Virus record (IMG/VR): IMGVR_UViG_3300045978_000284
Coordinates: 1-64,000 of that record
Strand: one strand, 5' to 3'
Length of the DNA stretch: 64,000 nt
Origin: a virus
Part shown: one piece after another, positions 27,222 through 48,509 of the stretch
Position numbering within the stretch: position 1 is the stretch's first letter
Layout of the letters: each line of letters starts with the position of its first letter
Notes under the pieces: generated by a model
Databases searched by the model: none
What the model was told of the DNA's origin: nothing
Seen by the model: only the letters and a program-made list of their open reading frames with translations
Program-made: the position numbers and the translations under genes

Positions 27222-30200
27222 ATGATCGGGGACTGGATCAAGCGCATCACGGGCCGGCACGAGCCGACCGGACGGCCGGTGATCCAGATCGTTCCGAGCG
27301 GTCAGCCGCCCACTCCGCTCCCGGGCGCCGCGACGGGCTACATCCCTCGGACCGCGGTCCCGTCGGAAGGTGGTCCACTCGCGGTCGAGAAGGAGCAGGT
27401 TCGTCTCTTCGCCGAGCGTCGCGAAGAGCTGAAGCGGTTCGGGCGCTACGAGCTCGGGGTGACGGGCACGCCGGTCTATGGCGGTCAGATCCTGACCGAG
27501 CCGAACCCGGACATGGCGTTCCCGAAGAGCCTGGCCACGTTCGACAAGATGCGTCGGACCGATGGCCAGGTGCACGCGGCGCTCCTGATCATCATGCTGC
27601 CGATCCTCTCGCTCGACTGGGCCATCGAGCCCTACGCGGAAATCGACGAATCGACCAGCACGCCAAAGGAGGTCACGCCCCTCGATCGCCAGGCGGCGGA
27701 CTTCATCCGGAAGGATCTCCTGGAAGGCTTCCAGCCCTTCAAGCACGTGCTCCGCGAGGTGCTCGGGATGATCTGGGCCGGCTTCTGGATCCTCGAAAAG
27801 ATCTACGAGGTCCGGGAGGACGGCCTGGTGCATCTGCACAAGCTCGGCACGCGCCTGCCCCAGACGATCTTCCGGTGGGGCGTGCGGCGCAACGGCGAGC
27901 TGGAGTTCGCCGTCCAGCGCGGCGTCGATCCCTCGACGGGCGGGACGATCGAGCAGACGCTCCCGGCCGAGGACATTCTGATCTTCGTCAACAACCAGGA
28001 AGGGGCGGACTGGCAGGGCCAGTCGGTGCTGCGCTCGGCCTACAAGCACTTCGAGATGAAGGACTGGCTCTACCGGATCGGCGTGATCAACGTCGAGCGC
28101 GGCGGAGGGTTCCCGGTGCTCTCGCTCCCGGAGGGGATGAACGACCAGGACCTCCAGGCCGCCCGGGACGTGGGCGAATCGATCCACGTGCACGAGCGGG
28201 CCTACGTGCTGGAGCCCCACGGGTGGCGCTTCCGGCTGGAGGGGACGACCTCGCGCATCGGCGACGTCATGGCCCAGGTCGAGCACCACGACCGGATGAT
28301 CTCGGTGAACGTGCTCGCGCAGTTCCTGGCGGCGACCGGCGGCGAGCTGGCGGGCCGCGGGTCGACGGCCGAGTACATGGACATGTTCCTGATGGCCGAG
28401 GAGGTGGTCATCGCGAACATCGAAGAGGTGTTCAACTCCGGCCTCGTCCGCCAGCTGGTGGACTACAACTTCCGGGTCGAGCCCGGGCACTACCCGAAGC
28501 TCAAGGCGCAGAACGTCCGCGGGTTCAACGTGCGGCGCATGGGCATCGTGCTGCGCACCATGGTCGATGGCCGCCTGATCACCCCGGACGAGCCCCTCGA
28601 AGAGTTCCTGCGCGAGGCGATGGGCTTGCCGCGAGCCGATCTCGATACCCGGCGCGACCCGATGGCCCAGATGATGGCCGCCGGTGGCCAGGGAGGGGAC
28701 CTCGGGGGCCTCGGGGCTCTCCTGGGGCTGGGTGGCGGTCCAAAGAAGCCAGGCGGTCCGGGTGGGCCCCCGACGCCGGGTGCCCCCACGCAGTCGAAGC
28801 TGGGCAAGCCAGGGCCGGAGACGGGTGTGCCGACCCAGGCCGCCAAGGCTGATCCCGTGTCGCCGATCCCGGGCGAGAATCCACTGCTGCCCTCCGACAA
28901 CCCGAAATGGCAGCAGAAGGAGGCGCTGCTCGCGGAGCGTGCGGAGGACGACGAGTGCATCTGGCGCACGATCGGCGGCAACCCGGTCTGCATCAAGGCT
29001 GGGCATGGCGGACACCGTGAGGGCCAGCGACCCTATCGCCACTCCTCCGGGCAAACTCCCGTGTCGAGCTTCGCGAGCGACCAGCCAAAGGGCCGCGCAG
29101 GACAGGACGAACGGGAGAACCTGCGCTGGCTGACCAGGCCCAGCGACTATGACATCGGTCGCACGTCGGACCGCTTTACCGTCGAGCACGGTCCGTTGCG
29201 CGTGGATGGCGTCATTGGTGACCGGGGCGGCACGCGGACGGCGGACATCAGGGTGTCAAACATGGAAAAGGTCGCGCCGTTCCCGTCCGGCGCCGAGCTG
29301 CCAGATCAATCCATGCCGCCAGTGGCGGCGAGCACCGTCGATCCTGGGAGCATGAGGGCGCTCCTGCGCGAGGTGCAGGCCGAGCTGGTCAAGCGCGGCG
29401 TCTCCCAGGCGATCTTGCCGCAGCCGGATAAGTCCTGGCGCGTCCCGCGCAAGATCCTTGATCGCCTCGGGGCCACGAAGGTCGACATCCCATTCCGCAC
29501 CCCTTCGCCCAAGGAGAAAGCCATGCGCCGGGACCTGGGAATCCCGGCCCCGACAGACGCCGACCGGGGCTCGCTCGTCAAGACCGAGTCCATGAAGGCC
29601 CTCGCTGAGATCTCCGATGAGGACTTCGCGCTGGGCGAGCTGGGCGAGTTCGTCAGCTCGACGGAGCTGCGCATCCCGGAGTGGGAGACCGAGCTGGCGC
29701 GCTACGCGGCCGCAATCCCCGCCGCGGATCTCGCCCAGGACGGTGTGGTCGGAAAGCACCACGTCACCCTGAAGTACGGGCTGGCCACGTCGAACGCGGA
29801 GGACCTGCGTCGGCTCGCGGCATCCCTGCCGACCATGACGCTGCGCCTGGGGGCCACGATGGTCTTCCCCAAGCCCGAGGCGGACATCCTGGTGATGCGG
29901 GTGTTCGGCGAGGGCCTGGAGGAGGCGCATGAGCAGATCCAGCGGTACACGCCCTGCCAGGAGGACGAGCAGCCGTACCTGCCGCACGTGACCCTGGCGT
30001 ATCTCAAGCCAGGCGCCGGCGTTCGCTACGCAGGAGATCCGGCGCTCGCGGGTCGGGCGGCGATCGCCACGGAGCTGTGGTTCCGCCCCTCGACGACCTC
30101 GAAGCTCCCGGACCAGGCGCTCCCGCTGGGCGTCGAGGACATGCAGCTCGCCGGGATCGAGGAGGCCTGGGCCAAGCCGCTGATGATCTCGCGCCCGCTC

Positions 30201-30995
30201 CGCCCACTCGAGCGCGCGGTCAATCTCCACGAGATCGACCGGCGCTGCAAGCTGACGGCGACCCGCATGCTCCAGACGGTGCGCCCGATCGGCCGCCAGA
30301 TGGCCGAGGCGATGGTGAAGGCCTGCCGGGAGTGCGGCGAGGACAACATCCAGTCCCTCATGGACTACCGGGTGCCGCTGCAGGGCAAGATGGCCTCGGC
30401 GTGCAAGACCTACCTCGCGGACATGTTCGACTTCGGGCAGGCCCAGGTGCGCGAAGAGCTGGCCCGGCAGCACCGCCAAGCGCAGAACCCGGAGAGCGAT
30501 CTCCTGCTGGCGGAGCCGCCGCGGCCCATCGACAACGAGAAGCGCGCCCGGGACGTCATCAACCTGAAGGCCGACCTGCTCTCGCGGCGCTGGGCGGAGC
30601 GCCTCAAGGAATCCGCCATGAACGTGATGCTGGCGGCCGCGCGCAGCGGGATGCCCCCGGGCGAGGCCGCGCAGCGCATCCAGGAGGCCGCGGACGAGAT
30701 CACCGATCGCTCGTCGCGCCAGCTCGTGATGAACACGCTCGGGGACGCCTTCGGCCTCGGGCGCCAGGTGGAGGCCCACCGGCAGCGCGACTACATCGGC
30801 GAGGCCGAGTACTCCGCGATCCTCGACGAGAACACCTGTGACCCGTGCCGTCAGCTCGACGGACGCACGGGGCAGCTGGACGAGCCGGCGATGCAGGTGC
30901 CGAACCCGAACTGCGCCGGCGAGCGCTACGGCTCGAGCTGTAGGTGCGTTCTCGTTTTTAGATATCGTGGACCATCCGGGGGCAGTGGGTCATGA
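27222..30995 (+). CDS. Portal protein (DUF935/Mu gp29-like) fused to a GNAT-like domain, a 2H phosphoesterase (Acb1/2'-5' ligase fold) and a MuF minor head domain
   Basis: Portal: FDKMRRTDGQVHAAL, GFWILEKIY, GQSVLRSAY, QLVDYNF; 2H motifs HHVTLKYG (29757) and PHVTLAYL (29985); MuF: YSAILDENTCDPCRQLDG..PNPNC..CRC. Confidence 0.88.
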   Translation: MIGDWIKRITGRHEPTGRPVIQIVPSGQPPTPLPGAATGYIPRTAVPSEGGPLAVEKEQVRLFAERREELKRFGRYELGVTGTPVYGGQILTEPNPDMAFPKSLATFDKMRRTDGQVHAALLIIMLPILSLDWAIEPYAEIDESTSTPKEVTPLDRQAADFIRKDLLEGFQPFKHVLREVLGMIWAGFWILEKIYEVREDGLVHLHKLGTRLPQTIFRWGVRRNGELEFAVQRGVDPSTGGTIEQTLPAEDILIFVNNQEGADWQGQSVLRSAYKHFEMKDWLYRIGVINVERGGGFPVLSLPEGMNDQDLQAARDVGESIHVHERAYVLEPHGWRFRLEGTTSRIGDVMAQVEHHDRMISVNVLAQFLAATGGELAGRGSTAEYMDMFLMAEEVVIANIEEVFNSGLVRQLVDYNFRVEPGHYPKLKAQNVRGFNVRRMGIVLRTMVDGRLITPDEPLEEFLREAMGLPRADLDTRRDPMAQMMAAGGQGGDLGGLGALLGLGGGPKKPGGPGGPPTPGAPTQSKLGKPGPETGVPTQAAKADPVSPIPGENPLLPSDNPKWQQKEALLAERAEDDECIWRTIGGNPVCIKAGHGGHREGQRPYRHSSGQTPVSSFASDQPKGRAGQDERENLRWLTRPSDYDIGRTSDRFTVEHGPLRVDGVIGDRGGTRTADIRVSNMEKVAPFPSGAELPDQSMPPVAASTVDPGSMRALLREVQAELVKRGVSQAILPQPDKSWRVPRKILDRLGATKVDIPFRTPSPKEKAMRRDLGIPAPTDADRGSLVKTESMKALAEISDEDFALGELGEFVSSTELRIPEWETELARYAAAIPAADLAQDGVVGKHHVTLKYGLATSNAEDLRRLAASLPTMTLRLGATMVFPKPEADILVMRVFGEGLEEAHEQIQRYTPCQEDEQPYLPHVTLAYLKPGAGVRYAGDPALAGRAAIATELWFRPSTTSKLPDQALPLGVEDMQLAGIEEAWAKPLMISRPLRPLERAVNLHEIDRRCKLTATRMLQTVRPIGRQMAEAMVKACRECGEDNIQSLMDYRVPLQGKMASACKTYLADMFDFGQAQVREELARQHRQAQNPESDLLLAEPPRPIDNEKRARDVINLKADLLSRRWAERLKESAMNVMLAAARSGMPPGEAAQRIQEAADEITDRSSRQLVMNTLGDAFGLGRQVEAHRQRDYIGEAEYSAILDENTCDPCRQLDGRTGQLDEPAMQVPNPNCAGERYGSSCRCVLVFRYRGPSGGSGS

Positions 30996-34108: not shown

Positions 34109-35020
34109 ATGTCGCTGACCATCCCGAACGACGAGACGACCTGGCTCAGCGAAGCCTTCTCCCTGCCCCAGGCAGTCGATTTCGCGATCCTGGCCGCGGC
34201 GTGCGGCCCCCGGCCCACGGGCGTGCTGTGGGGCTGCCGCGCCTACTGGGATGGGTCATCGACGATCCACGTGGACCCGGGCACCGTCCTGCTGGACGGG
34301 GCCTTTGCCATGACGCCGACCACCCCCGTGGATTGCACCAGCGACGTGCTCAGCCGGATTGATCTCATCCAGGTCATTCCCGTCGCGGAAAGCGTCGCGT
34401 CGGTCCAGATCAAGAGCGGGGCCTACTCCGAGACGCCGCGCGCGCCCCTGCCGGACCCGGGGTGCGCCGGTGTGGCGGTGGTCTATGTGCCGGGCAAGGT
34501 GAATGACTACTTCCCGCCGCTCGGGCCCGAGTTCGTGCTCGACAAGCGCGTCTTTCTGCCCGGCACGGTCCGGCGATCCAAAAAGGTCGACGAGAGCCGG
34601 TCGACTCTGACGGCGACCGACGATGACTACCTGGCCCTGCCGATCCCGAAGGGTCACGTGACCCATGTCACGATCAAGGTCTGGTACAACACCAACGCGA
34701 CCGCGGACTTCATCTGGTCCCTCGTGCTGCGGGACGGGAACGGGGTGTCATTCGCGCCGCCCACCGTGCTGGTGAACTACCAGTACACCCGGCCGACCGT
34801 GGTGACCCTCGTGGCGCCGGTGTTTTCATCGTCGCTCCCGTCGGGCATAAGCGTGAATGCGTCGGGGACGGGCGACGCCTGGCTTCTGATCGACGCGGCG
34901 ATCGGCGGGGACGCCACGCGCGACGGCGTCCTGAAGTTTCAGTGGGCCACGACCGGGGCCGGCGCGGCGATTCTGCGCGGGTCGAGCTACGCGATTGCGC
35001 GGGGCCAGGGCTGGGCCTGA
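34109..35020 (+). CDS. Putative virion fibre/receptor-binding-type protein (paralog of the previous gene)
   Basis: Shares TIPND, GV..GC, RIDLI, DKR, KVWYNT..DFIW, FQWA, RGSSY. Confidence 0.6.
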   Translation: MSLTIPNDETTWLSEAFSLPQAVDFAILAAACGPRPTGVLWGCRAYWDGSSTIHVDPGTVLLDGAFAMTPTTPVDCTSDVLSRIDLIQVIPVAESVASVQIKSGAYSETPRAPLPDPGCAGVAVVYVPGKVNDYFPPLGPEFVLDKRVFLPGTVRRSKKVDESRSTLTATDDDYLALPIPKGHVTHVTIKVWYNTNATADFIWSLVLRDGNGVSFAPPTVLVNYQYTRPTVVTLVAPVFSSSLPSGISVNASGTGDAWLLIDAAIGGDATRDGVLKFQWATTGAGAAILRGSSYAIARGQGWA

Positions 35021-37682
35021 TGTGGCTGCCCATCCAGCCGTTCACGCTGCGCGGCATCAACTCCACGGTGGGGCACCCGGACGGCGGGTACCGGGTCCGA
35101 TCGTGGGGCTGCCCGTACCCCACGCTGCTCTGGTGTTCCACCGCCTCCCCGCTCGGCACGACGCACCAGGCCCGGCTGCCGGACATGACCCCGGGGATCA
35201 CCTGGCTCCTGGCGGTGCTGACCCAGCCGCGCGTGTCGATCACGTGGCCCGCGGCGCCGAACGGCCCCTGGACCTCGCTGCTGACCGGCGACGCGCATGG
35301 CGTGGCCTCGCGACTGGCGATGGCGATGCGGACGGCGAGCGGGGCCGAGTCCAAGTTCGTGACCTACACGACGTCGGCCTCGGCGCGCTGCATGGCAATC
35401 GCGATCGCCATGACCGGCCTCTACCCGGGCTCGACGCCCGAGTTCCAGGTCGGCTGGGACGAGTTCGTGGCGGCTCCCCCGTACCCGAGCCTCACGCCGT
35501 CGTGGGGGGTGGAGGGGGAGCGGACGACCTGGCTCGCGTTCACCGGGACCGTGGACGCCGACAACGACCTGCCCTTCCATCACGCGCTGGAGGATGCGCT
35601 CCGCATCCGCGCCATCCTGATCGACCCCACGGATCGTCACGAGCAGCTGGATCTGTGCCGGCTCGATCAACCACTCGCCACCTGGACTCCGTCGGCGCTC
35701 CTGTCATCCTCCTCCGGCCTGCTGCTTGAGTGCACGGCGGTCACGATGGCGCTCAGGGCCAATACGACGGCCTGCGAGTTCACCGCGGCCTCGAGCATCG
35801 ACGGGCGGATCCGGTTGACCCTGTTCCTGCACCAGCTGACCGGCAAGGTCCTCACCATGCGGCTCATCAACGGGCACACGGTGAGCCGGAAAGCCACGGT
35901 GAGTGGGCCCGGGGGGAGCTACGAGGTGACGGCCGCACCCGGGGCCACGGAGACGCTCGACATCTCGGCGGGACTGCTCTCGCTGGACAACATCAGCTAT
36001 GGGACGAGCCAGGCCTGAATGGCCTTCGGCGATGTCCTCATCCTCGCGGAGAACACCAACACCTCGCAGCTCACCGCCTATCCCACGTCCAGCTATACGC
36101 CGACCGCGGGCCGGCTCATCGTGGCCGGGACGCTGATCACGGCCAGCAGCGCGCCGGGTACGCCCACGCTCACTGGGAACGGGCTCACGTGGTCGCTCAT
36201 CGACGAGATCGGCTACAGCACGCTGGCGGCGCCCACCAAGCTCCTGAGCGTCTTCCAGGCCCCGGTGATCTCACCGTCGTCCGGGGCGTGCGAGATCGCC
36301 AGCAGCAGCGGGACGCTCACGTCCTGCACGTGGTCGATCGTCGAGCTCGACCTGGCCGCGCTCGTGGGCGGGATTGTCCAGGCCCAGAAGGCCGGTAGCG
36401 ACGTGACCCAGACCTCCGCGCTGGTCCCCATGAACCCGTTCGCGGATGCCGGCAACCTGGCGCTGGCGTTCTCGGTCCTGAACAACCAGCAGGCCCAGAC
36501 CGAGCGCCCGAACTGGAACCGCATCAGCGATCTGCCGGGCACCGCGCCGGCGACGGGGTTTCTCTCGCAGTACTTCCTGGGTGACGATGGGGACGCCAGC
36601 GCCTCATGGGGCTCGGTCACGCGGTGGGCTATGATCGCCCTCGAAATCAAGGCCCAGGTGGCGCCGGCCCAGGTGTGGCGTCGACAGGTCCCGATGATGC
36701 TGATGCGGTAGGAAAGGACGAGGGCTATGGGACGCATGTATCGACTGCCGATGCCGGCGATCGCGATCACCGCCCAGCAGGATTTCTATGAGATCCAGTC
36801 GCCGACCGATGCCGTGACCAAGGTGCACCGGATCATCCTGAGCCAGCTGACGGAGGTCGGCGACGCCCAGGAAGAGCAGCTGTCGATCCGCGTGAACCGC
36901 GGGACGGGCACCGTCACGAGCGGCAGCGGCGGAACGACCCTGACCCCGCAGCCCATCGAGGCGGGCGACGTCGGCTACGGGGGCGTCGTGGAGATCAACA
37001 ACACGACGAAGATGGCCGTCGGAACGGGCACGCTCGTCAACCTCGGCGAGTACTCCTGGAACGTGCGCATGGAGCGGGACTTCGTGTATACCCCGGAAGG
37101 GCGCGAGGTCATCTCGCCCGGCAGTCGGCTGACGTTCGAGCTGGCCACGACGCCGGCGGATCCCATCACGGTCAAGGGCACGGTCGAGATCGAGGAGGTG
37201 GGCGGATGAGCTGGAAGGGGACGGTCCTGACGCCCGAGACGGTGCCCCCGGCCATCCGGGCGGACCTGATGCGCAAGGCCAACCGCCGCCACCCGCGCGA
37301 TCCCGCGGCCGCGATGGCCGCCCACGAGGTGCTCGTGGCCGAGTATGCCCAGGCGCACAACGAGCGCTTCCGTGTCGTGGCGTATGACGGCGAGGTGCCG
37401 GTGATCGCCGAGGAACTGGAGGCGCGAACGCTCAAGCGCCTCTCGCCGAAGGCGCGGCGGATCGCCACGGCCCTGCTCCTGAGCACGCCCGACGTGCGGG
37501 CGGAAGCGCTCGGGGCCTTCGAGGCCTCGGGCGCGCTGCGCTCGGTCCTGGAGCCCGTGCCGGCCGCTGCGGCTGAGAGCGCCCCGCCACAGGCACCACC
37601 GCCGCCGCCCCCATCCCGCCAGCCGGCGCCAGCCTCCAGCCGTCCATCGCATACGCCGCCTGGACGCTCGACCCGGCGGTAG
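35020..37682 (+). CDS. Four beta-rich/hypothetical putative virion proteins (35020-36018, 36019-36711, 36727-37209, 37206-37682)
   Basis: Tightly coupled ORFs; Thr/Ser/Gly-rich composition. Confidence 0.55.
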
Positions 37683-37691
37683 CCCCGTCGC

Positions 37692-39080
37692 GTGTCGACC
37701 GGGGTCTTCCGGCGCTATCCGCGGCGGTACCCGCGGGCCTGGATTGCCGGCGCGCCGGCGGGCGGCGTGGTCTCGGCGTCGATCGACTACGGCCTGACCG
37801 CGGCGGTGCCGGCAGCGACCACGGCGATCGCAGGGAAGTCGATCGCGTACGGGGTGGTCGTCAACGCCCCGGCTTCGGCCAGTGCCGTGCGCGCCGCGGC
37901 CCTGCCGCTCGGGGTGATCGAGGCGCTCGGCCTGGGCCGCGTCCTGTCGGCCGGCGCATCGCTCTCGCTGACGACCGTGGAGGGGCTCGTGCTCGCGGCG
38001 AGCCGCACCGCGGCCGCCGCGCTGGCGCTGGGCGTCACGGAAGCGCTGACGCCGACCGCGGGCCTCCTGGCGGTGGCGTCGCTGACCCTCGGCACCCAGA
38101 CGGCCCTGATCCTGAACGGGCTTCCGCCGGGGGCGAGTCTGGACCTCGGGATCACGACCGGGCTGGCCCAGAGCGCGGGCCTCCTGGCGGTGGCCTCGAT
38201 GCCGTTCGGGGTCACGGGCGCGATGGCCCCGGCCCCGCAGACCACACGCGAGGGGACCCTCGCCCTGTCGGTCGAGATCGGGTTGGTCCAGGTTGGCGCC
38301 GCGGTCCTCCAGGCGGCGCTCGGGCTCGGGCTGACGTCGCTCCAGAGCCAGCAGGCCGGCACGGTCGCCTCGGCCCTGATCACCTACCCCGTGCTGGAGC
38401 AGCTTGGCCTGGTGGCGGGCGGGAGCCTCATGGCAGCCCAGACGCTGGCCGCGGTGATGGGGTTCACCCCGGCCGCCGCGCCGAGCGGTGTGAGCGTCCT
38501 CGAGCTGGGTACGCAGCTCGCCCTGACCCTGCCGGCGCCGAACGCGATCATGGCGGCGATCCTGTCCATGGGGGTGCAGCATGGGATGGCGCTGGCGGGC
38601 GGCGCGATGCTGCAGGCGCTGCAGGCCCTGGGGATCACGACGGCGTTCCTGCCCGAGCCGGCGGGCGGGACCCAGCAGGCGCCGCTGACGCTGTCGCTCA
38701 CGACGGACCTGGCGCTCGCGGCCTCCCGCGTGTCGGCGGCGCTCCTCAGCCTGACGTCGATCCCGGCGCTGTCTCCGGATGCTCAGCACCAGCTCGGGCG
38801 CGCGCTGGCCCTGACGATCCAGCAGGAGCTGGCCCTGCACACGCAGACGGCGCAGTCGGCGCTGATCCAGTACGGGCTGACGGCCAGCCAGGTGCAGCTC
38901 GGCGGGATGGTCCACCAGGCGGTGATGAGCCTGGCGGCGTCGCTCGTGCTGGCCCAGAACGGGGCGCTGTTCTCGGCGATCGGCCACCGCATCCGCTTCA
39001 CGGGCGAGCAGATGCGGGCGGCCACCATGACGGGCGAGTCGATGGGCGGCGCGTCGCCGAAAGGGGAACGATTGGTATGA
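37692..39080 (+). CDS. Ala/Leu-rich degenerate-repeat protein (fibre-like)
   Basis: Recurrent ~23-aa A-S-L-x-L-G-x-T pattern through the protein. Confidence 0.6.
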   Translation: MSTGVFRRYPRRYPRAWIAGAPAGGVVSASIDYGLTAAVPAATTAIAGKSIAYGVVVNAPASASAVRAAALPLGVIEALGLGRVLSAGASLSLTTVEGLVLAASRTAAAALALGVTEALTPTAGLLAVASLTLGTQTALILNGLPPGASLDLGITTGLAQSAGLLAVASMPFGVTGAMAPAPQTTREGTLALSVEIGLVQVGAAVLQAALGLGLTSLQSQQAGTVASALITYPVLEQLGLVAGGSLMAAQTLAAVMGFTPAAAPSGVSVLELGTQLALTLPAPNAIMAAILSMGVQHGMALAGGAMLQALQALGITTAFLPEPAGGTQQAPLTLSLTTDLALAASRVSAALLSLTSIPALSPDAQHQLGRALALTIQQELALHTQTAQSALIQYGLTASQVQLGGMVHQAVMSLAASLVLAQNGALFSAIGHRIRFTGEQMRAATMTGESMGGASPKGERLV

Positions 39081-39454
39081 GGCCCAACTCCTACTGGCAC
39101 AGTACCGAGCGGACGACGGGGGCGTACACGGTGAAGGCCCTGAAGGACGAGGACGGGATCGTCCTGACGAGCCTCGATACCCTGACCCTCTCGGTGTGGG
39201 ATCTCAAATCGGGCGCGATCATCAACGGGCGCGACCGGCAGGACGTGCTCAACCAGAACGACGTGACGTTCAATGGGGACGGCTCTCTGCTCTGGCGCGT
39301 CCAGGCCGCCGACCGGCCGATCCTGGACGACACGCAGGACTGGGAGGACCACGTCGCCATGTTCGAGTTCACCTATGCGGGCGGGGGGCGAACCGGCCAC
39401 TGGGTGCTCCAGGACCGGATCGACAATCTCCAGAAGGTGCCGGCGACGCCGTGA
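39077..39454 (+). CDS. Hypothetical structural protein (BppU-N-like)
   Basis: ERTTG.Y...LKDEDG..LTL..D..SG.IINGRD.Q pattern; coupled to its neighbours. Confidence 0.5.
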   Translation: MRPNSYWHSTERTTGAYTVKALKDEDGIVLTSLDTLTLSVWDLKSGAIINGRDRQDVLNQNDVTFNGDGSLLWRVQAADRPILDDTQDWEDHVAMFEFTYAGGGRTGHWVLQDRIDNLQKVPATP

Positions 39455-42400
39455 GCGCGAAGTGGGACGTGGTTCTGGCCGAGCGCCTGCTGGCGGACAA
39501 AGAGCGCTCGGGCATCGAGGCGTTCATGCGCGGCACCGGGCGAAAGCGCGGCGGCGGCGAACAGGGTGGCGGCGGTGGTGACGAGGACGACGGAGACTGC
39601 AAGTGGGTCACCATCCGCGGTAACCCCGTCTGCCTGACGCCGGGTCATGGTGGCCACCGGAAGGGCGAGTCCATCGCGAAGTCCCAGGCGGCCTACTCCG
39701 ATGTACCCACGGGGAAGGGGGGCCGCGTGCGCGCGGTGTCCCGGATCTGGAACCCGACCGCCGAGAACACCTGGCGGGGCTCCGGTGCCGTGACACCGAA
39801 GTGGCCCAAGGGCGTCGAGCCCGGAAGAGTGCTCGACCGCTTCCGCTTCAACACGACGTCGATGTCCGCTTCCGGCCACATCGAGGAGGACGAGAACCAA
39901 CGCAAGCGGGCCGTCATCCACGAGGTGGTCAACGACACGCCGAGCCTCCTGACGTCGCAGGAGCGGCGAAACCAGCCGACCGGATCCTACCCGTCGCGCG
40001 CCGGCGAATCCCGCACCCTGCTCCGCGAGCTGATGGTCAGCCTGCGCGACAAGGGGGTGCGGGAGGCCATCCTGCCCCCCAGGGTGGTCGGGGCGGGCGC
40101 CGAGCCGTGGATGGCGTACCAGTCCACGCGCGGGGACAAGCCGTACCCGCGGAGCTGGCCCGGAATGAGCGTGCAGTTCGGCCGCGCCGAGCCCAGGCCA
40201 GGAGTCGTGGCGGGTCCAGGCCTCGGCGATGCGACGGCGCGCCCGGTTCCGCCCCATCGCATCCTCGATCGCCTCAAGGCCAAGCCGGTCACGGACGCGG
40301 GCGGCAAGATCACGGGCTACCGGGTGAACGTCGAGGAGATGCAGTACCTCTGCGAGATGGCATGGCCCGAGGATCGCGTCCTGGCGGATCCGGAGCGGCG
40401 GCGCGTGGTGGCCGCCTTCGACTTCGACGGCACGCTGGCCCAGTACCAGGGGTGGGGCGACGGGACACCGGGCGATCCGATCCCGGGCATGCGCGAGGTC
40501 ATCGACCAGCTGCAGGCCGCCGGCGCCGAGGTCCTGATCTTCTCGACGCGGGATGCCGACCAGATCCGGGCCTGGCTCACGAAGCACGAGTGGCCGGCCC
40601 TGGAGGTGACGAACAAGAAGCACCCGCGGATCACGGTGTACATCGACGACCGGGCCCTCGAGTACGAGCCCGAGACGCTCGACACCCTGGCCGTCCGGGT
40701 CATGAACTTCCGCCCGTGGTGGCAGACGGTCGACCACCAGCTGGCGGACGAGGACGACGACTGCACCTGGATCACGATCGACGGCCGCCACATCTGCATC
40801 CAGCCCAAGCACGCCTGGCATGACCGGACGCCGCGCGTGAAAGTCAGCCGCGCGCCGCACTGGCGACGTGAGCCGATCGAGGGCAAGCGCATCAGCTGGT
40901 CCCAGCAGGGGAAGATGGGGGAGCGCCTGGCGATCGCGCATCTCAAGCGCCTTGGGTTCCGGGACGCGCGGCCGGCCACGAAGATCTCGAACTTTCCCGT
41001 CGACCTGGTGCACGGGGACACCCTGGTCGAGGTCAAGACGGGGCTCGCCAGCAACACGCAGAAGAGCCAGCACTGGCGGACCACGATCGGCGAGCCCGGC
41101 AAGGCGGAGCGGCGCTGGCTGCGCGAGCTGGACCGGGACAAGAAGCTCCGGTGGAACGCCGAGAAGATGCGCCAGATCCATCTCCGCAAGCAGGCGGTCG
41201 TGAAGGCGCTCTCGCGCGAGCTGGGCCGTCCGATCAAGACGGAGACCGTCGCGCTCATCCTCGACCCGGGCCGGCGCAAGGCCGACGTGTACCGCTTCGA
41301 GGGCTTCCCCAGGCGCGTGGGATGGCGCTCGCCCACGGCCCAGCAGGGCTACGTGACCACCTACGACTACAAGCTGAGCGAGGACCTGTGGGACGTACCG
41401 GCCCCGCCGCTGCGGCCGGACGTCTACGAACTCGCCGAGCCCGAGGCGGAGCCCGCTGATCCGGAGACGGTCGATGACGAGGCCGACGACGACGCGGACT
41501 GGCCGTCCTGGGTGCCGCTGGGCGTGCGCGCCGAGGTCGAGGGTGCGCTGTCGCGCTGGAGCCGCGACGTCGAGAAGGCGATCGCGAAGGAGGACAGCCG
41601 GTCGCTCGCCGAGGAGGACGACGACGAGTGCATCTGGCGCATGATCGGGGGCCACCCGGTCTGCATCCGCGCGAGCCACGCGGAGCACGGCCGCGGCGAG
41701 CGACCGGACCGTGGGGCCCCCCGGGAGACCCGGCGGTTCCGCTCCGAGACCACCCCACGCGCCCCGAAGCCCCCGGCGAAGGGCATCAACCCGGAGCCCT
41801 TGACCACCCGGGTGGCGAGCCCTCGGCTCTTCAGCCCGGTTGCCCGGGCGGTGCCGCTGGGCCATCGCTACGGGGAAAAGCCGTCCGGCGACCCGGAGGG
41901 CCACCTGAACTCGGTGTTCCGCGTGACGCTGGAGAACGGCAACGACGCGGTGTGGAAACCGGCCGCCGGCGAGCACAGCGCGTTCTCCGGCGCCGATCCC
42001 GCCAAGCTGAAAGGATTCACGCAGGACCTCCGGGCGTTCGGCCAGCCAGGCACCTACTGGAAGCGCGAGGTGGCGGCCTCCCGGATCGCCCGGGCGGTGG
42101 GCATGGAGGACCTGGTGCCGTCCACCGACCCGGCCTCGTTCGGCACCGAGCACGGGGCGCTTCAGACGTTCCAGCGCGGGGTGAGCCCCATGACCCTCGG
42201 GCGCGATCTCTACGGCAAGCGGCTCGAGGACGTCGAGCGCGCGGTGCTGTACGACGCGGTCATCGGGAACTTCGACCGCCACTTCGGCAACTGGCTGGTG
42301 GCCCCCACCGGCAAGCTGATCCTGATCGACCATGGCCACGCCTTCCCGCGCACCCAGGTCGTGAAGCACCCGGGGGACCTCCGGGAAGGTCTCCGGGCAG

Positions 42401-42594
42401 GCGGCGAAATGAACCGCGAGATCCCGGAGGCCGTGAAGGAGCCCTGGAAGAAGATCGAGAGCCAGCTCCCGACGCTCCTGCGGGGTCTTTCGTCGGCCAC
42501 CATCAAGACGACGCGGCAGCGGCTCGGCCTCGCCCTCAAGCCAGGCCAGACGTGGATCGGCCTGCGGCGCGACCTGGAGCGGCCGTTCAAGTAG
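39451..42594 (+). CDS. Multi-domain polyprotein: GNAT-like domain + HAD phosphatase + PD-(D/E)XK nuclease + PI3/PI4-kinase/HipA-like kinase, with three C-W-I-G-C tags
   Basis: GTG start overlapping the upstream TGA; DFDGTL..FSTR..YIDDRA; GERLA..PVDL..VEVKTG; AVWKP..REVAA..DRHFGNWL..IDHGHAFP. Confidence 0.85.
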   Translation: MSAKWDVVLAERLLADKERSGIEAFMRGTGRKRGGGEQGGGGGDEDDGDCKWVTIRGNPVCLTPGHGGHRKGESIAKSQAAYSDVPTGKGGRVRAVSRIWNPTAENTWRGSGAVTPKWPKGVEPGRVLDRFRFNTTSMSASGHIEEDENQRKRAVIHEVVNDTPSLLTSQERRNQPTGSYPSRAGESRTLLRELMVSLRDKGVREAILPPRVVGAGAEPWMAYQSTRGDKPYPRSWPGMSVQFGRAEPRPGVVAGPGLGDATARPVPPHRILDRLKAKPVTDAGGKITGYRVNVEEMQYLCEMAWPEDRVLADPERRRVVAAFDFDGTLAQYQGWGDGTPGDPIPGMREVIDQLQAAGAEVLIFSTRDADQIRAWLTKHEWPALEVTNKKHPRITVYIDDRALEYEPETLDTLAVRVMNFRPWWQTVDHQLADEDDDCTWITIDGRHICIQPKHAWHDRTPRVKVSRAPHWRREPIEGKRISWSQQGKMGERLAIAHLKRLGFRDARPATKISNFPVDLVHGDTLVEVKTGLASNTQKSQHWRTTIGEPGKAERRWLRELDRDKKLRWNAEKMRQIHLRKQAVVKALSRELGRPIKTETVALILDPGRRKADVYRFEGFPRRVGWRSPTAQQGYVTTYDYKLSEDLWDVPAPPLRPDVYELAEPEAEPADPETVDDEADDDADWPSWVPLGVRAEVEGALSRWSRDVEKAIAKEDSRSLAEEDDDECIWRMIGGHPVCIRASHAEHGRGERPDRGAPRETRRFRSETTPRAPKPPAKGINPEPLTTRVASPRLFSPVARAVPLGHRYGEKPSGDPEGHLNSVFRVTLENGNDAVWKPAAGEHSAFSGADPAKLKGFTQDLRAFGQPGTYWKREVAASRIARAVGMEDLVPSTDPASFGTEHGALQTFQRGVSPMTLGRDLYGKRLEDVERAVLYDAVIGNFDRHFGNWLVAPTGKLILIDHGHAFPRTQVVKHPGDLREGLRAGGEMNREIPEAVKEPWKKIESQLPTLLRGLSSATIKTTRQRLGLALKPGQTWIGLRRDLERPFK

Positions 42595-42876
42595 CGCGTC
42601 ACGCGCCCGTCACGGTTCCGGGCTCACTAAGCGATGGGCGGGTAAGGCCGCTGAGCGAGACACCTGCGGACGCGGGCCGGGACGCGCCCACCCCGGCGAT
42701 TCACGCGCAGGACCGCGGCGCCCCGAGGACGGCGCTGGTGGTGTGGTCATGAGCGGCGAGCGCGTGCGGTACGGTCTCGCAGGAGGGAAGTTGACGTCAC
42801 GCTAGCCCGCATGCGATAAGGTCAATCAACGCGCTCCCGGCTGTGACCGGGGGCGGCATGGCTGACCCGCAAAGGG

Positions 42877-42909
42877 AGGCCCGACGCGTCGTCGTCGGGC
42901 CTTTCTCTT
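42877..42909 (+). terminator. Intrinsic terminator-like hairpin
   Basis: AGGCCCGACG-CGTCGT-CGTCGGGCCT followed by TTCTCTT. Confidence 0.55.
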
Positions 42910-43065
42910 GTCTGGTCCTGACAACGATTCGCACGGCTCGACCCAGCGCCCGGAGTCATGACCCGGGCGCCGGCGAAATGCCGGGACACCGAGGGGCGGT
43001 TTCTGGTGCACCAGCCAGGAACCGCCCTTCTGTGTTCTGGGGCCGGGGTCAGAGGGAGAGCAGGC

Positions 43066-43754: not shown

Positions 43755-44036
43755 GTGAGCGTCGGAGGTCTGGATGCCGCAGAGCTGGCCCGCGAGCTGG
43801 CGCCGCTCAACCCGAGGATCTCGGTGGGCATTCGCCAGGGGGGCGCGGAGGGCAAGGGCAAGCGCATGCCATATGACAAGCTGAGCGGCCTGCCGGACCA
43901 CGTGCGCAAGCGCGGCAAGACGGCCAGCAAGCGCTGGCGGGCGATCTTCAACAGCGTGTTCGCGAAGGACGGCGAGGCGAAGGCCTTCGCGGCGGCCAAC
44001 GCCTCGCTGGATGACCCGCATTCCGGGCACACCTGA
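43755..44036 (+). CDS. ChaB-like protein
   Basis: MPYDKLSGLPDHVRK..ASKRWRAIFNS..EAKAFAAA (ChaB pattern starts at 43866). Confidence 0.7.
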   Translation: MSVGGLDAAELARELAPLNPRISVGIRQGGAEGKGKRMPYDKLSGLPDHVRKRGKTASKRWRAIFNSVFAKDGEAKAFAAANASLDDPHSGHT

Positions 44037-44042
44037 GACCGC

Positions 44043-45806
44043 ATGCTGAGCGACCGGATCGGTCGCGTGATCGAGGGGTACGAGCTCTCAACGTCGCTCT
44101 TCGGGGAGCCGAAGTCGAAGCTCCTGCTCTTCCCGCGCGGCCAGTTCGATCATCCGAAGTACGGCAAGATGACCTTCGACGACGAGTTCTTCGACGAGGT
44201 CGTCGCCAACTACAAGAACAAGGTGCTCGGCCGGACCGAGCCCTACATCGACTTCGACCACCAGAAGGGCCGCGCGGCCGCGTGGATCCGCGAGCTGTCG
44301 GTCGATCCCGATGGCCTGTGGGCCTCGCGCGTCGACTGGACGCCCGCCGGCGAGACGGCGGTGCGCTCGGGCGAGTACCGCTACGTGTCGCCCTGGTGGG
44401 GCTCCGTGTCCGACGCGGCGAACGGCGAGACCTACGATCGCGTGCTGCGCGGGGCCGGGCTCACGAACGTCCCCTATCTGAAGCAGCTTCCGCCGGTGGC
44501 CCAGGACGCGGTCCTTGAGGAGAGCGAGCCGCTGGTCGAGCTGATGCTCAGCGAGTTCCTGCTCGCGGGCAACCCGTACCGGGCGGCCGATGGGACGTTC
44601 ACCGACGCGGCCCACGACGTCGGCGGTGGCGGTGTCGGTGGTGGTGGCGGCAAGGGCGGCGGCGCCGGGCCCGCTGCGGTCAAGGTCTCGCGCAGCGCGG
44701 CCCGGGGCGCCCAGATCGGCTGGGACCTCGGGCGCCTCTTCGGCTCCACGAAGCTCTCCGGGGCAGCGGCGACCGGCATCGGGATCGCGGCCGGTCTCGG
44801 GTCGCTGGCCGCGGCGAATCCGGATGCGGCCATGAAAGTGGCGGGCCTGGCGAAGGCCCTCGGCTCGCGTGTCATGCGTCACGGGCCGGCGATCGCTGGA
44901 ACCGTCCTGGCCGGCGCGGGCATGCTCGGGCTGTCGCGCGTCGGCCGGCCCCCCGCGCCAGGGCGACAGTCACCGGCCGAGCTTGAAGTCGGCGCGGCCA
45001 TGGCGCGGCAGGGCTTGCTCCCGCCCGCGGCTCCCGGTGGCGCTCCCGCGAAGCCAGCGCTGGGAGCTCTGGCGACCGGGAAAATCCAGAACGCCAAGGC
45101 CGTGCTGCGCGAGGTGCTCTCGCGCTATCGCTCGATGCCCCTCAAGCCGGAGGCGCCCGCCGCTCCAGCGGCGCCCGCCGAACCGCCCTACACGTCCTGG
45201 GTCGAGCGGCAGATCGCGTCGGGCGAGAAGGGCTCGCGAGGCACGCGGCGGCTGCGCAAGGGCGGCGGCGTCGGCTACCAGGGCGGCCGCAACGTGCGCC
45301 TCGACGACGTGCTCGCCACGTTCCGGGAGTTCCGCCTGGCGGATGAGGAGGACGACGCCCTGGAGGCCATCGACGTCGATGCCATCCCGGACGATCTCGC
45401 CGAGGCGATCCTGAAGATGCTGCAGGCCTACGTGGAGCGCGAAGAGAAGGCGCTCTCCGAGCGGCTGCATCGCACGCTGACCGGCCAGGCGCTCGCCGAT
45501 GGCGACCCGGAGGACGAGGACGAGGAAGAGGACGAGGACGAGGACGAGGACGAGGATCTCGAGTCCCTGCCGAACCGGGTGCGCGCAGCCTGGAACGCGA
45601 TGTACCCGATGGGCATCTCCATGAACGGCGCGCGCCATCCCTACCTCACCAAGATCTTCGAGGAGCACGTGATCGCGGAGGACGGCGAGCGGCCGAACAC
45701 GTGGTGGCAGATTCCGTGGCGAGAGGTCGGCCCACAGATCGTCTTCGACATGGCGGCCCGCATCCCGGTCCACCAGGTGTGGCTGCCTGCGGGAGCGACC
45801 GCATGA
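44043..45806 (+). CDS. Mu gpI-like prohead protease with a C-terminal NPY-tagged cargo module and acidic tail
   Basis: IDFDH..AAAWI..DGLWA..VDWTPAG..GEYRYVSP..GAGLTNVPYL. Confidence 0.88.
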   Translation: MLSDRIGRVIEGYELSTSLFGEPKSKLLLFPRGQFDHPKYGKMTFDDEFFDEVVANYKNKVLGRTEPYIDFDHQKGRAAAWIRELSVDPDGLWASRVDWTPAGETAVRSGEYRYVSPWWGSVSDAANGETYDRVLRGAGLTNVPYLKQLPPVAQDAVLEESEPLVELMLSEFLLAGNPYRAADGTFTDAAHDVGGGGVGGGGGKGGGAGPAAVKVSRSAARGAQIGWDLGRLFGSTKLSGAAATGIGIAAGLGSLAAANPDAAMKVAGLAKALGSRVMRHGPAIAGTVLAGAGMLGLSRVGRPPAPGRQSPAELEVGAAMARQGLLPPAAPGGAPAKPALGALATGKIQNAKAVLREVLSRYRSMPLKPEAPAAPAAPAEPPYTSWVERQIASGEKGSRGTRRLRKGGGVGYQGGRNVRLDDVLATFREFRLADEEDDALEAIDVDAIPDDLAEAILKMLQAYVEREEKALSERLHRTLTGQALADGDPEDEDEEEDEDEDEDEDLESLPNRVRAAWNAMYPMGISMNGARHPYLTKIFEEHVIAEDGERPNTWWQIPWREVGPQIVFDMAARIPVHQVWLPAGATA

Positions 45807-47719
45807 GCCTCCGGACGACCCTCGCCGAGCACACCCTGGCCAACCCCTACCGGGACGAGGGCGGTCGGTTCACGACAGAGTCACAAGACACGGGTGGACG
45901 CACTGGGGGCGCGGCGAAAGGCGAGGGGCGCCTCGCCAAGACCGCCAAGCGCGTCGCGAAGGCGGCGGGGGCAGCACTGGATCTCCCGGAGGCCGAAACC
46001 CGGACGATCAGCGCCGATAGAGCGGCGGTGGGGAAGGCGATCAAGAGAGGCATCGGGCACGGTGTGGTGACCGGCCTGGTGCTCGGTCGGCGCGCCGGGC
46101 TCGTAACTGGAGCTGCGGAGGCCGTGACGCAGCTCTCCAAAGCGCCGAAGCTCCGGCGCACCGTCGACCGCGCCCTCCGCACAGTCAGTCGGGGCGCCAT
46201 CAACCTGGGGCCCAAGGGTGTCGGCCAGCTGATCAATGGCCTGGTCCTCACGGGAAGCCTCGCGTACTCGGCCTACCAGATCTACAAGGGGCTGCAGTCG
46301 CTGCGGCCCCCCGGGCCGAGTCGTCAGCTGGCCGAACCCGATGTGGCCGATCGGGAGTCGTTCGAGGCTGTGCCGGAGGTGATCTGGAAGGCCCTCCTGT
46401 CGGCCCTCAAGGACTACACCAAGCATGGCGATGGCGATCGCCTGCAGCGGGACCTGGCCGCCATCGCGCCGGCCCAGTCCGAGCTATCGGAGACCCTGCA
46501 GGAGTACGCGCTGGCGAACCCGTACCGAGATCGAGAGGGCAAGTTCACCACCGAGGCCGGCGACACGGGCGGCGGCGGGCGCGGTGCAAAGACCGAGAGG
46601 CCGCGCGCGCGCAAGCGCGGCCTGGGCGGTGAATCGGTATCCGAAAGCCTGAAGGTCGGTGCCGCCACTGGCGCGACGATGGCCGTCGGCAGCGCGTTCG
46701 CCATGCCGCCGTTGCATGCGGTTGGGGCCGGCGGCCTCTCGGGGGTCGGGGCGGCGGCCTGGAATATCGGGAAGAGCCCGAAAGGCCGCGCCGCCGTCGC
46801 CAAGACCGTGCGCACGCTGAGCAACGGTGCCATCAAGATCGGCCCCAAGGCCGTGGGCCGCATCCTGAAAGGCGTTAGCGTGGCGGCCACTCTCGGGGGC
46901 AGCGCCGTGGCCATGCACGCGCTCTACAAGGCGATGGGTGGCGGAGGGGATCTCCTCGGAACCTTCCGCGACGAGCTGGCCAAGCCGGGAGGGCCCCGGG
47001 GCGGCCCGGCCCCGTTCTCCCCCTACGGTGGGAACGTGGTGAAAGAGCCCACCTATACGGGAGGAGGTCGTCCCCCCGATCCACCCGATCCGACCATTCG
47101 CCGACCGGGCGACACGGCGGCGGTCGAGTACCGGGGCAAGACGTTCTATGGGAAGACCGAGGACGACGCCATGAACAAGCTCAGGCGAGCCCAGCTCCCC
47201 GAGCAGGGCGCATTCGTCGGAGACACGTCGACCATCTTCCGCGGAACCTCCGGGAAGCCACTCGCCCCCGGCCTCGGCATCGTCGGCTACCCGAAGACCA
47301 GGGAGGAAGCCGCGGCGCGCACGCAGGCATTCCGGAGCACGGTGTATGGAGGCCAGAAGTTCACATCCAAGTCGAAGCCGATCCCGACGCTCGAGCCGCC
47401 CAAGGCGCGGTTGGGTGGCCTCCTGGGTCCGCCGCGCGTGGACACGCTCGAAGACCTGCTGAAGCGCCCCGGCTTCAAGCTGGCCGAGCCGGACGCGCCG
47501 GACGATCTGCCCGAACCGCTCCTGAAGGCCATGGTGTCGGCCCTCCAGGACTACGCGAAGCACGAGGACGCCGACCGTCTCCGGCGGGATCTCGCGGCGA
47601 TCCAGGCGCGCGTGGACGCGGCCGCGGACCAGACGGAACCCGCACTGTCAGAACCTTCCATCGGCGAGGTCCTGGGCCAGCAGGCCCGGAGAAGCCTGCT
47701 CGCCGCGATCGCCCACTGA
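45803..47719 (+). CDS. Repeat polyprotein: 2x [NPYRD tag - basic/hydrophobic Gly-Ala segment - acidic helical module]
   Basis: LANPYRDEGGRFTT (45836) and LANPYRDREGKFTT (46511); duplicated VRTLSNGAIKIGPKAVG / LRTVSRGAINLGPKGVG and AL.DY.KH.D.DRL.RDLAAI. Confidence 0.8.
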   Translation: MSLRTTLAEHTLANPYRDEGGRFTTESQDTGGRTGGAAKGEGRLAKTAKRVAKAAGAALDLPEAETRTISADRAAVGKAIKRGIGHGVVTGLVLGRRAGLVTGAAEAVTQLSKAPKLRRTVDRALRTVSRGAINLGPKGVGQLINGLVLTGSLAYSAYQIYKGLQSLRPPGPSRQLAEPDVADRESFEAVPEVIWKALLSALKDYTKHGDGDRLQRDLAAIAPAQSELSETLQEYALANPYRDREGKFTTEAGDTGGGGRGAKTERPRARKRGLGGESVSESLKVGAATGATMAVGSAFAMPPLHAVGAGGLSGVGAAAWNIGKSPKGRAAVAKTVRTLSNGAIKIGPKAVGRILKGVSVAATLGGSAVAMHALYKAMGGGGDLLGTFRDELAKPGGPRGGPAPFSPYGGNVVKEPTYTGGGRPPDPPDPTIRRPGDTAAVEYRGKTFYGKTEDDAMNKLRRAQLPEQGAFVGDTSTIFRGTSGKPLAPGLGIVGYPKTREEAAARTQAFRSTVYGGQKFTSKSKPIPTLEPPKARLGGLLGPPRVDTLEDLLKRPGFKLAEPDAPDDLPEPLLKAMVSALQDYAKHEDADRLRRDLAAIQARVDAAADQTEPALSEPSIGEVLGQQARRSLLAAIAH

Positions 47720-47735: not shown

Positions 47736-48509
47736 ATGGGCAAGTTGCTCGTTCAGCTGCGCAAGGATCTCGCCCTCGCCGAGGACGCGACGGTCGTCGA
47801 GGTCATGGACCACATGGGCCGCATGCTCGCGGACGACATGACCGAGGAGGAGAAGAAGAAGGCCGAGGAAGAGGCCGCCGCCGCCAATGCGGCGAAGAGC
47901 GCCGAGGAGGAGGCCAAGAAGGAAGAGGACAAGGAGATGTCGGAGGTGCGCGCGCTGCTCAAGATCGCCAAGCCGAAGCCGGGCGCGATCCTGACGGCGG
48001 TGCGGACTCTCACGACGTCGGCCTCCGACCACGTGCTCTCGGAGACCGCGCTGGGCCGCGAGCTTGCCGAGCTGCGCCTGTCCCACAAGGAGCTGTCAGA
48101 TCAGGTCGAGGAGCTGCGCCCCGCGGCCGCGGAAGCGACGCGCCTGGCGGCCGAGGCGAAGGCCACCAAGAAGGCCACCTTCTTCGATCGCCAGCTCCAC
48201 GAGGGCAAGCTGAAGCCGGCGGAGCGGTCGTTCTATGAGGCCCAGTACGACCTCAACGAGGACGCGGTGGTCAAGTTCTTCGGCGAGCGCAAGCCGGAGA
48301 TCAAGCTCGGCCAGTGGCCGTCGGTCAATCGCCCGGTCGAGGAGCCCGCGGCCGGGGATCCGCGCGAGCGGGTGCTGGCCGAGGCGCAGAAGCTCGCCCT
48401 CGCCGAGAAGATTCCGCTCGACCAGGCCGTGCACCGCGTGACGGCCCAGGACCACGAGCTGGCCGAATCGGTGCGGGGCATGTACGGCCCGGCGGGCGTC
48501 CGCCGGTAA
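47736..48509 (+). CDS. Capsid scaffolding protein (Mu gpZ-like)
   Basis: Coiled-coil EK-rich sequence, EGKLKPAE motif typical of the gpI C-terminal scaffold; upstream of decoration and capsid genes. Confidence 0.75.
   Translation: MGKLLVQLRKDLALAEDATVVEVMDHMGRMLADDMTEEEKKKAEEEAAAANAAKSAEEEAKKEEDKEMSEVRALLKIAKPKPGAILTAVRTLTTSASDHVLSETALGRELAELRLSHKELSDQVEELRPAAAEATRLAAEAKATKKATFFDRQLHEGKLKPAERSFYEAQYDLNEDAVVKFFGERKPEIKLGQWPSVNRPVEEPAAGDPRERVLAEAQKLALAEKIPLDQAVHRVTAQDHELAESVRGMYGPAGVRR

Follow-up and report, generated by a model that had tools for sequence, protein, structure and literature searches.

Phage-type polyvalent proteins (Iyer, Burroughs, Anand, de Souza and Aravind 2017; PMC5512222) carry several unrelated effector-type enzyme domains on one polypeptide and are encoded among the virion genes of portal-terminase phages; GNATs and kinases are among the domain classes that article lists. 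Here we describe a gene with the same properties in a window that comprises the first 64 kb (G+C ~69%) of the 108,431-bp virus record IMGVR_UViG_3300045978_000284 from IMG/VR, a record estimated to be 96% complete. The gene lies in the head module of the phage, and its product, hereafter the polyprotein, combines four such domains: a GNAT-like fold, a HAD phosphatase, a PD-(D/E)xK nuclease and a kinase of the PI3/PI4-kinase family. As in the polyvalent proteins, its modules recur in the company of portal, MuF, ART-PolyVal, 2H/Acb1, NUDIX and InPase domains. We consider it probable that this is a phage-type polyvalent head-cargo polyprotein, loaded into the head, cut after L-[AS]-[DE] triplets and delivering its enzymes by injection together with the DNA. 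It differs from the polyvalent proteins in having no MuF, portal or zincin peptidase domain in cis, and we propose the prohead protease, acting at a short code, as its processing enzyme in place of a built-in metallopeptidase. Text searches of the 2017 article returned neither a phosphatase nor a PI3/4K-type kinase, the kinases there being of a truncated Ser/Thr/Tyr type, so that the HAD phosphatase and the type II PI4K-like kinase of this locus are additions to the effector classes found by these searches in the catalogue. The principle of polyvalent proteins encoded by virion genes was published in 2017. New here are the combination of domains, a widespread nuclease module that Pfam apparently does not cover, a Cys/His tag, the layout of propeptide, tags and sites, and an apparent cutting code. 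The legible order of propeptide, tag, domain and triplet makes the hypothesis of cargo loading and processing directly testable.

Capsid-carried proteins act before phage gene expression and are prime candidates for first-strike anti-defence tools; to our knowledge, those of T4, P1, N4 and the giant phages aside, few of them have been investigated. MuF polymorphic toxins, as reportedly described by Jamet et al. in 2017, carry MuF at the N-terminus and a single toxin at the C-terminus and are often accompanied by an immunity gene. The polyprotein would share with them a head-associated delivery of variable toxin-like enzymes. We ruled out that it is itself a MuF toxin, as it has no MuF domain (no PF04233 match at E<=1) and no evident partner gene; a late-expressed cargo enzyme may need no immunity gene. 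Another close parallel is the cargo of T4 (IPI-III and Alt) and the ejection proteins of SPN3US (PMC3012670, PMC7411985), which are also made with the head genes. In T4, the internal proteins and Alt start with a capsid-targeting sequence, a propeptide of 10 to 20 amino acids that is removed by the prohead protease, and the SPN3US protease cuts after an AXE motif (PMC7411985, PMC3012670). The polyprotein likewise begins with a short peptide ending in a candidate site of a small residue followed by an acid. In those phages the prohead protease also cuts the scaffold, and the cargo enters the host by injection and counteracts its defences; the same would hold for our phage. There is no sequence homology between the systems, and the protease here is of the Mu-I type. 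T4 encodes its cargo as separate genes, in contrast to the four cargos on one chain with internal candidate sites seen here.

The polyprotein gene starts at a GTG codon (39451) that overlaps the stop of the upstream open reading frame (ORF) 39077-39454 and keeps the same frame to the stop at 42594. Third-position G+C (GC3) is between 0.85 and 0.98 in all of its 60-codon blocks, and because it is uniform along the whole ORF we regard the gene as one continuous unit and discard the alternatives of several genes or a frameshift. A first-pass annotation, made from the letters and their reading frames, had called a single ORF encoding four enzymes. The continuous frame, the uniform GC3 and an identical protein on record agree with that call, the HAD, nuclease and kinase motifs all lie where it had placed them, and its four domain identifications stand, that of the GNAT-like domain at the level of a predicted fold only. 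Megablast of the gene against cultured phages gave no match, searches of IMG/VR by peptide patterns revealed no close relatives of the polyprotein, and single-sequence PDB searches with four of its segments returned nothing significant. PADLOC reported just a weak match of the kinase loop to the candidate PDC-M66A (E 4e-4); this match alone therefore makes no case for a defence system.

The nuclease module could be assigned from its fold. An AlphaFold model of aa 465-645, built with 30 homologues, reached a mean predicted local distance difference test score (pLDDT) of 92. Foldseek returned weak matches only, all of them to PD-(D/E)xK proteins, and so were the top 11 rows of VIA, an aligner independent of Foldseek (Z 6.0-8.8), which included I-Ssp6803I (Z 8.8 over 119 aligned residues), NhoI (8.5), Hjc (7.7/7.5), Eco15I-N, PvuII and EcoRV. 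The VIA alignments cover residues 16-173 of the model, which identifies the long helical hairpin as an insertion into one nuclease domain. The residues E491 (nt 40921), D518 and E527-V-K529 (nt 41035-41037) are in place, and E491, D518, E527 and K529 are invariant in the alignment of 30 homologues. The modelled alpha-beta-beta-beta-alpha-beta core with its E...D...ExK residues is that of a PD-(D/E)xK nuclease, as the first-pass annotation had proposed from the motif. At the level of sequence, the module profile matched nothing in the PDB, and in this protein the module matches no Pfam family.

Relatives of this module are numerous. A full-database HMMER search gave 2827 matches and, at E<1e-30, 144 protein clusters (50% identity), nearly all to aa 470-641; the locus thus adds a nuclease module, apparently outside Pfam coverage, that is present in at least 144 clusters. 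The proteins carrying it range from 134 to 3184 aa, and the module almost always forms their extreme C-terminus, as it also does in 60 viral contigs; they stop about 100 residues past a conserved WRxTIG motif. Only the polyprotein and a few others have the module in an internal position, among them proteins of 2224-2248 aa in three viral contigs (L029, L031 and L032). In a Pfam scan of 34 nuclease-module proteins, portal families accounted for 17 matches (Portal_Mu 10, other portal families 7), followed by ART-PolyVal and Phage_Mu_F (6 each), Acb1 and 2H (5 each), PI3_PI4_kinase (3), NUDIX (2) and InPase (1); together with a scan of 6 further relatives, this places the domains of the polyprotein in the architectural network of the polyvalent proteins. 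Single relatives combine a nuclease followed by a kinase (P0006), HAD and nuclease (P0007), 2H, HAD and kinase (P0109), nuclease and 2H (P0139), nuclease, InPase and MuF (P0093), or two kinases, ART and nuclease (P0003), and one of 3184 aa has four tandem PI3/4K-like kinase domains (P0044). We conclude from these sequence comparisons that the module represents a widespread family and the commonest C-terminal piece of such portal, MuF, ART, Acb1/2H, NUDIX and InPase fusions. It was absent by tblastn from 50,697 cultured phage records, and its single match among 185,579 prokaryote genomes/species lies on a contig of a Vicinamibacterales metagenome-assembled genome (L066); the family seems to be confined to uncultured, probably virulent, phages. 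On several related contigs, the module is followed after 3-6 kb by a gene for a homologue of the major head protein of our phage. When the head genes of our phage were compared by tblastn with the 60 related loci, most were too divergent, with matches of the major capsid protein at 7 loci, the portal at 6 and the protease at 2.

The kinase domain shows the motifs VWKP (with K836), REVAA (E873), DRHFGN (942-947) and IDHG (D960) between nt ~41950 and 42330, and it scored 36.1 bits against Pfam PI3_PI4_kinase (PF00454), above the gathering cut-off of 27.1. When it was aligned with the corresponding domains of five relatives, [VF][WF]KPxxGE, RExAA, GSxQxF, DxxIGNxDRHxGNW and LID[HN]GxxFP proved to be kept, and K836, E873, D942-N947 and D960 are conserved. 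Among solved structures, the family profile matched type II PI4-kinases alpha and beta (PI4K2A/B) best (E 7e-4 to 1e-3), with Fam20B next, and NCBIfam gave a weak match to the actinobacterial SCO1664 family (TIGR03843). With these two families the phage kinase has in common the catalytic-loop and metal segments D-x2-IGN-x-DRH-x-GNW and LID[HN]G-x2-FP, although just ~45-70 residues align significantly and, unlike them, it is a domain of ~250 aa within a phage polyprotein. HipA families were not among the Pfam matches of the polyprotein at E<=1; P0044 also touches HipA_2. The atypical PI3/4K-type kinase with intact motifs recognized in the first-pass annotation is thus retained, whereas HipA was set aside as its primary label. 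On its sequence, the domain belongs to the PI3/4K superfamily with type II PI4-kinases, not HipA, as the nearest solved relatives, a likeness that leaves both lipids and proteins as possible targets.

In the HAD domain, DFDGT starts at nt 40420 and is followed by FSTRD and YIDDR; motifs I-IV (D324/D326, FSTRD, K390 and D399-D400) are invariant in 4 homologues. The domain matched phrog_1238 (4.7e-12) and phrog_415 (7.7e-6), in line with the HAD assignment made at first pass, and stayed below the curated cut-offs of PF00702 (14.8 versus 26.4) and TIGR01662 (14.6 versus 44.6). The best PDB match of its profile was the 126-aa minimal HAD 1xpj (1e-5), ahead of weaker matches to mammalian PNKP, GmhB, Pnkp1 and the phosphatase domain of T4 polynucleotide kinase (PNK). 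We therefore classify it, from its sequence features, as a divergent minimal HAD, small and cap-less. It was the sole part of the polyprotein that tblastn matched in cultured phages, where its counterparts are stand-alone proteins of ~110 aa. These nearest stand-alone HADs, such as gp83 of Gordonia phage Nithya (44% identity), are encoded in early regions and annotated as PNK type.

The remaining domain, the GNAT-like one, was recognized from a model built with a 4-row alignment, whose mean pLDDT is 57 and reaches 75-87 in the secondary-structure core. The model contains the beta2-beta7 core with alpha3/alpha4 that defines the GNAT fold. VIA gave GNATs in 49 of 50 rows (best Z 6.8; the minimal phage GNAT AcrVA5 at Z 6.0 over 85/95 residues), nearly all Foldseek rows were GNATs with probabilities up to 0.99, and the matches of these two independent aligners included Naa50, RimI, NatC, AtaT, TacT and AcrVA5. 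The domain lacks the N-terminal arm, and the acetyl-CoA pyrophosphate loop Q/R-x-x-G-x-G/A is not canonical, reading S-R-A-G-E-S in the polyprotein and D-P-G-S-M-R in a paralogue on the portal protein described below. No Pfam, PDB or database sequence matched it, word-indexed searches from both paralogues found no homologue, and a protein atlas offered just sub-threshold leads. Because of the non-canonical loop and the lack of a sequence match, we label aa ~125-302 a predicted GNAT-like fold and claim neither family membership nor activity.

As judged from the neighbouring genes, the polyprotein is encoded in a Mu-type head module, between a portal fusion and a Mu-I-type prohead protease (Table 1). 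The portal fusion consists of Portal_Mu (residues 106-428), a Gly/Pro linker, a tag, the GNAT-like paralogue, a 2H phosphoesterase (LigT/Acb1-like; 847-932) and Phage_Mu_F (1143-1244). Downstream of the polyprotein gene follow a gap of ~470 nt, a 227-aa ORF, a ChaB-like ORF, the protease, a 672-aa ORF, the presumed scaffold and the major head protein. The late head position noted at first pass is thus confirmed by the genes on both sides. The accompanying statement that there is no structural or MuF domain is correct for the polyprotein, which matched no such Pfam family at E<=1, and needs the addition that a MuF domain sits on the portal chain 8.5 kb upstream.

The tag is a Cys/His motif that the polyprotein and the portal fusion have in common. 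A search of all six reading frames of the complete genome with its strict pattern, C-x-W-x2-I-x-G-x3-C-x4-H-x2-H, gave exactly four matches (polyprotein aa 50-69, 438-457 and 727-746; portal fusion nt 28956-29015), and 30 shuffles gave none. An acidic run precedes every copy, and the residues D, C, W, I, G, C, H and H do not vary among them. In the model, the part from W-x-x-I up to the second Cys forms a beta-hairpin (pLDDT 72-76 in copy 1), and the pairs of Cys and His residues point to a possible metal site. A single tag match in a JGI metagenome (L063) proved to be a chance match inside hydrogenase genes. Against the PDB, the tag profile gave a non-significant match (E 0.8) to the I-x-G-x-P-V-C segment of a phiKZ spike-tip protein with PAAR repeats, which we did not use as evidence; that there are three tags per chain and three PAAR repeats is a resemblance without support.

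The domain borders of the polyprotein are marked by L-[AS]-[DE] triplets. Compared with the expectation from composition, 7 were observed in the polyprotein (1.4 expected), 8 in the presumed scaffold (1.1), which is the most enriched ORF of the genome, 6 in the protease ORF (1.4), 5 in ORF 45701 (1.2), 4 in the portal fusion (2.2) and 0 in the capsid protein (0.3). Scaffold, polyprotein and protease are the top three among the 91 genome ORFs that passed the filter. The placement of the triplets at domain borders is a stronger argument than these statistics: they stand between the GNAT-like domain and the HAD, directly before tags 2 and 3, and at the point where homologous proteins end, and in the portal fusion they precede the tag, the 2H domain and MuF. 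Within the first 25 residues, triplets were found in head-module ORFs only. Two further ORFs of the head module (34109-35020 and 36019-36711) have L[AS]E within the first 15 residues, as do the scaffold and the polyprotein, and from this feature they may be additional head proteins processed by the protease.

We propose the following sequence of events. The polyprotein would be made late, along with the head genes, and would enter the prohead core of the Mu-type head by its N-terminal peptide, its tags or both, beside the portal that bears the GNAT-like, 2H and MuF domains. Its N-terminal LAE/LAD peptide would serve as a capsid-targeting propeptide like those of T4. The Mu-I-type prohead protease would then cut after the L-[AS]-[DE] triplets and yield four pieces, namely tag plus GNAT-like domain, HAD phosphatase, tag plus PD-(D/E)xK nuclease, and tag plus type II PI4K-like kinase, with the Cys/His hairpins as a shared handle, probably stabilised by metal, with which mature pieces would begin. 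These pieces would stay with the DNA, leave the capsid with it and act in the new host before phage gene expression, on targets of defence or takeover. The recurrent company of 2H, HAD, kinase and nuclease domains suggests nucleic-acid ends or nucleotide signals as substrates. The idea of a cassette of injected effectors, already voiced in the first-pass annotation, has thereby gained comparative support from the recurrence of the nuclease and kinase modules in fusions with portal, MuF, ART, 2H, NUDIX and InPase domains, while packaging and injection are still what we infer from it. The same annotation had suggested that the uncleaved precursor may be self-inhibited, since no immunity gene is evident next to it.

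Several points speak against such a cargo. The phage is uncultured and the virion location is deduced from sequence, and because neither a portal nor a MuF domain is part of the polyprotein, how it would enter the head is conjectural. The GNAT-like model stems from few sequences and has the non-canonical acetyl-CoA loop, this form of the Cys/His tag was not found in other viruses in IMG/VR or in metagenomes at JGI, and a terminator-like hairpin after the polyprotein gene means that co-transcription with the protease may fail. The L-[AS]-[DE] motif was chosen after inspecting these very sequences, so that p-values are optimistic and the statistics indicative only, and the major capsid protein does not contain it. 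These last two points would also fit a polyprotein that is packaged and ejected as an uncleaved 115-kDa chain, like the N4 virion RNA polymerase or P1 DarB, with the triplets as a by-product of linkers rich in Leu, Ala and acidic residues; full-length transfer of polyvalent proteins is cited by Iyer et al. 2017 (PMC5512222). We nevertheless think an uncleaved chain unlikely, as the triplets are 5-fold above expectation and present at every domain border, the enrichment is common to scaffold and protease, and one triplet coincides with the natural C-terminus of homologues.

It is also improbable that the protein stays outside the virion as a late multi-enzyme of the cytoplasm, for example a suite that processes nucleic-acid ends or clears nucleotide signals in the producing cell, the 2H domain of the portal then being a stray relative. 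Many phages have the nuclease module covalently joined to portals and MuF, the tag and the GNAT-like paralogue are common to polyprotein and portal fusion, and the kinase belongs to the PI3/4K superfamily and is no P-loop polynucleotide kinase; these facts argue against a cytoplasmic role, which is favoured by the PNK-type annotation and early-region location of the nearest stand-alone HADs, the recurrence of 2H, HAD and kinase in P0109, the separate RNA ligase and nuclease genes in the head region of the distant Arthrobacter phage Kovu, and the terminator-like hairpin. That some or all domains are catalytically dead and fill the inside of the capsid in a structural or DNA-binding role is very improbable given that the catalytic residues of HAD, nuclease and kinase are intact and invariant across homologues, even though the GNAT-like domain lacks the canonical loop and the N-terminal arm and MuF itself includes inactive effector domains (Iyer et al. 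2017, PMC5512222). We thus prefer the head-cargo polyprotein that is cut before ejection.

Other motifs occupy a position similar to that of the tag. Two relatives contain a Cys-less form, WVT[IVL]xGxHVxI, in one case immediately before the nuclease module, and in many other relatives an HPRxxxGxF-type motif precedes this module. Three NPYRxxxGxFT motifs (44571, 45842 and 46517), possibly a second kind of cargo header, lie in the protease extension and ORF 45701-47719, each with an L[AS]E triplet before it and Gly-rich basic stretches after it. One might speculate that the Cys/His hairpin is a new metal-binding cargo header which, together with the propeptide and the L-[AS]-[DE] sites, forms a code for loading, cutting and ejection, and that it is interchangeable with WVTIxGxHVxI and HPRxxxGxF/NPYRxxxGxFT headers that would mark capsid cargo in many uncultured phages. 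We regard this idea as doubtful; if true, virion-delivered effectors would become predictable from sequence alone.

Table 1. Positions of the polyprotein gene, its predicted parts and the associated head genes in the window
Feature	Position (nt)	Strand	Remarks
Polyprotein gene	39451..42594	+	1047 aa (P0001); identical protein on record (P0002)
Candidate removable capsid-targeting propeptide	39451..39498	+	16 residues; LAE 9-11, LAD 14-16; putative, by analogy to T4
Tag copy 1	39580..39657	+	aa 44-69; acidic run, C50-x-W52-x2-I-x-G-x3-C61-x4-H66-x2-H69
GNAT-like fold domain (predicted)	39823..40356	+	aa ~125-302; disordered Pro/Gly insert of ~55 aa; paralogue in portal fusion
Candidate site L311-A-D313	40381..40389	+	between GNAT-like domain and HAD
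Cap-less HAD phosphatase domain	40402..40740	+	aa ~318-430; D324xD326, S/T-R, K390, D399-D400
Candidate site L431-A-D433	40741..40749	+	directly before tag 2
Tag copy 2	40750..40821	+	aa 434-457
PD-(D/E)xK nuclease module	40882..41373	+	aa ~478-641; helical-hairpin insert; E491, D518, E527, K529
Candidate site L642-S-E644	41374..41382	+	where homologous proteins end
Acidic linker	41383..41613	+	aa 645-721; candidate sites L661-A-E663 and L719-A-E721 (the latter before tag 3)
Tag copy 3	41614..41688	+	aa 722-746
PI3/PI4-kinase-family domain, type II PI4K-like	41839..42570	+	aa ~797-1040; K836, E873, D942-R-H-x-x-N947, D960
Portal fusion (Portal_Mu - tag - GNAT-like paralogue - 2H phosphoesterase - MuF)	27222..30995	+	1257 aa
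Tag copy 4, in portal fusion	28944..29015	+	LAE before it
Mu-I-type prohead protease	44043..45806	+	Mu-like_Pro domain aa 29-163; long C-terminal extension; presumed processing enzyme
ORF 45701-47719	45701..47719		672 aa; between protease and presumed scaffold
Presumed scaffold	47736..48509	+	257 aa
Major head protein	at 49011		after presumed scaffold

The ~470 nt directly 3' of the polyprotein gene (42595-43062) have a low coding signal and contain a GC-rich stem-loop of 17 bp (42991-43030) that is followed by a weak T tail and might be a terminator or some other kind of RNA element. Just before the protease gene, a 56-aa ORF (43866-44036) gave a weak, sub-cut-off match to the ChaB family (E 0.007), and two genes upstream of the polyprotein lies the gene of a 462-aa protein (37692-39080) that is rich in Ala, Leu and Gly, internally repetitive and without a family match. 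The capsid proteins closest to that of our phage are from Arthrobacter phages (34-36% identity). In a distant capsid relative, Arthrobacter phage Kovu (L064, 12190-19028), the interval from the maturation protease to the capsid gene holds separate nuclease-type genes, with the annotations RNA ligase, VRR-Nuc, nuclease, ribonuclease and endonuclease VII.

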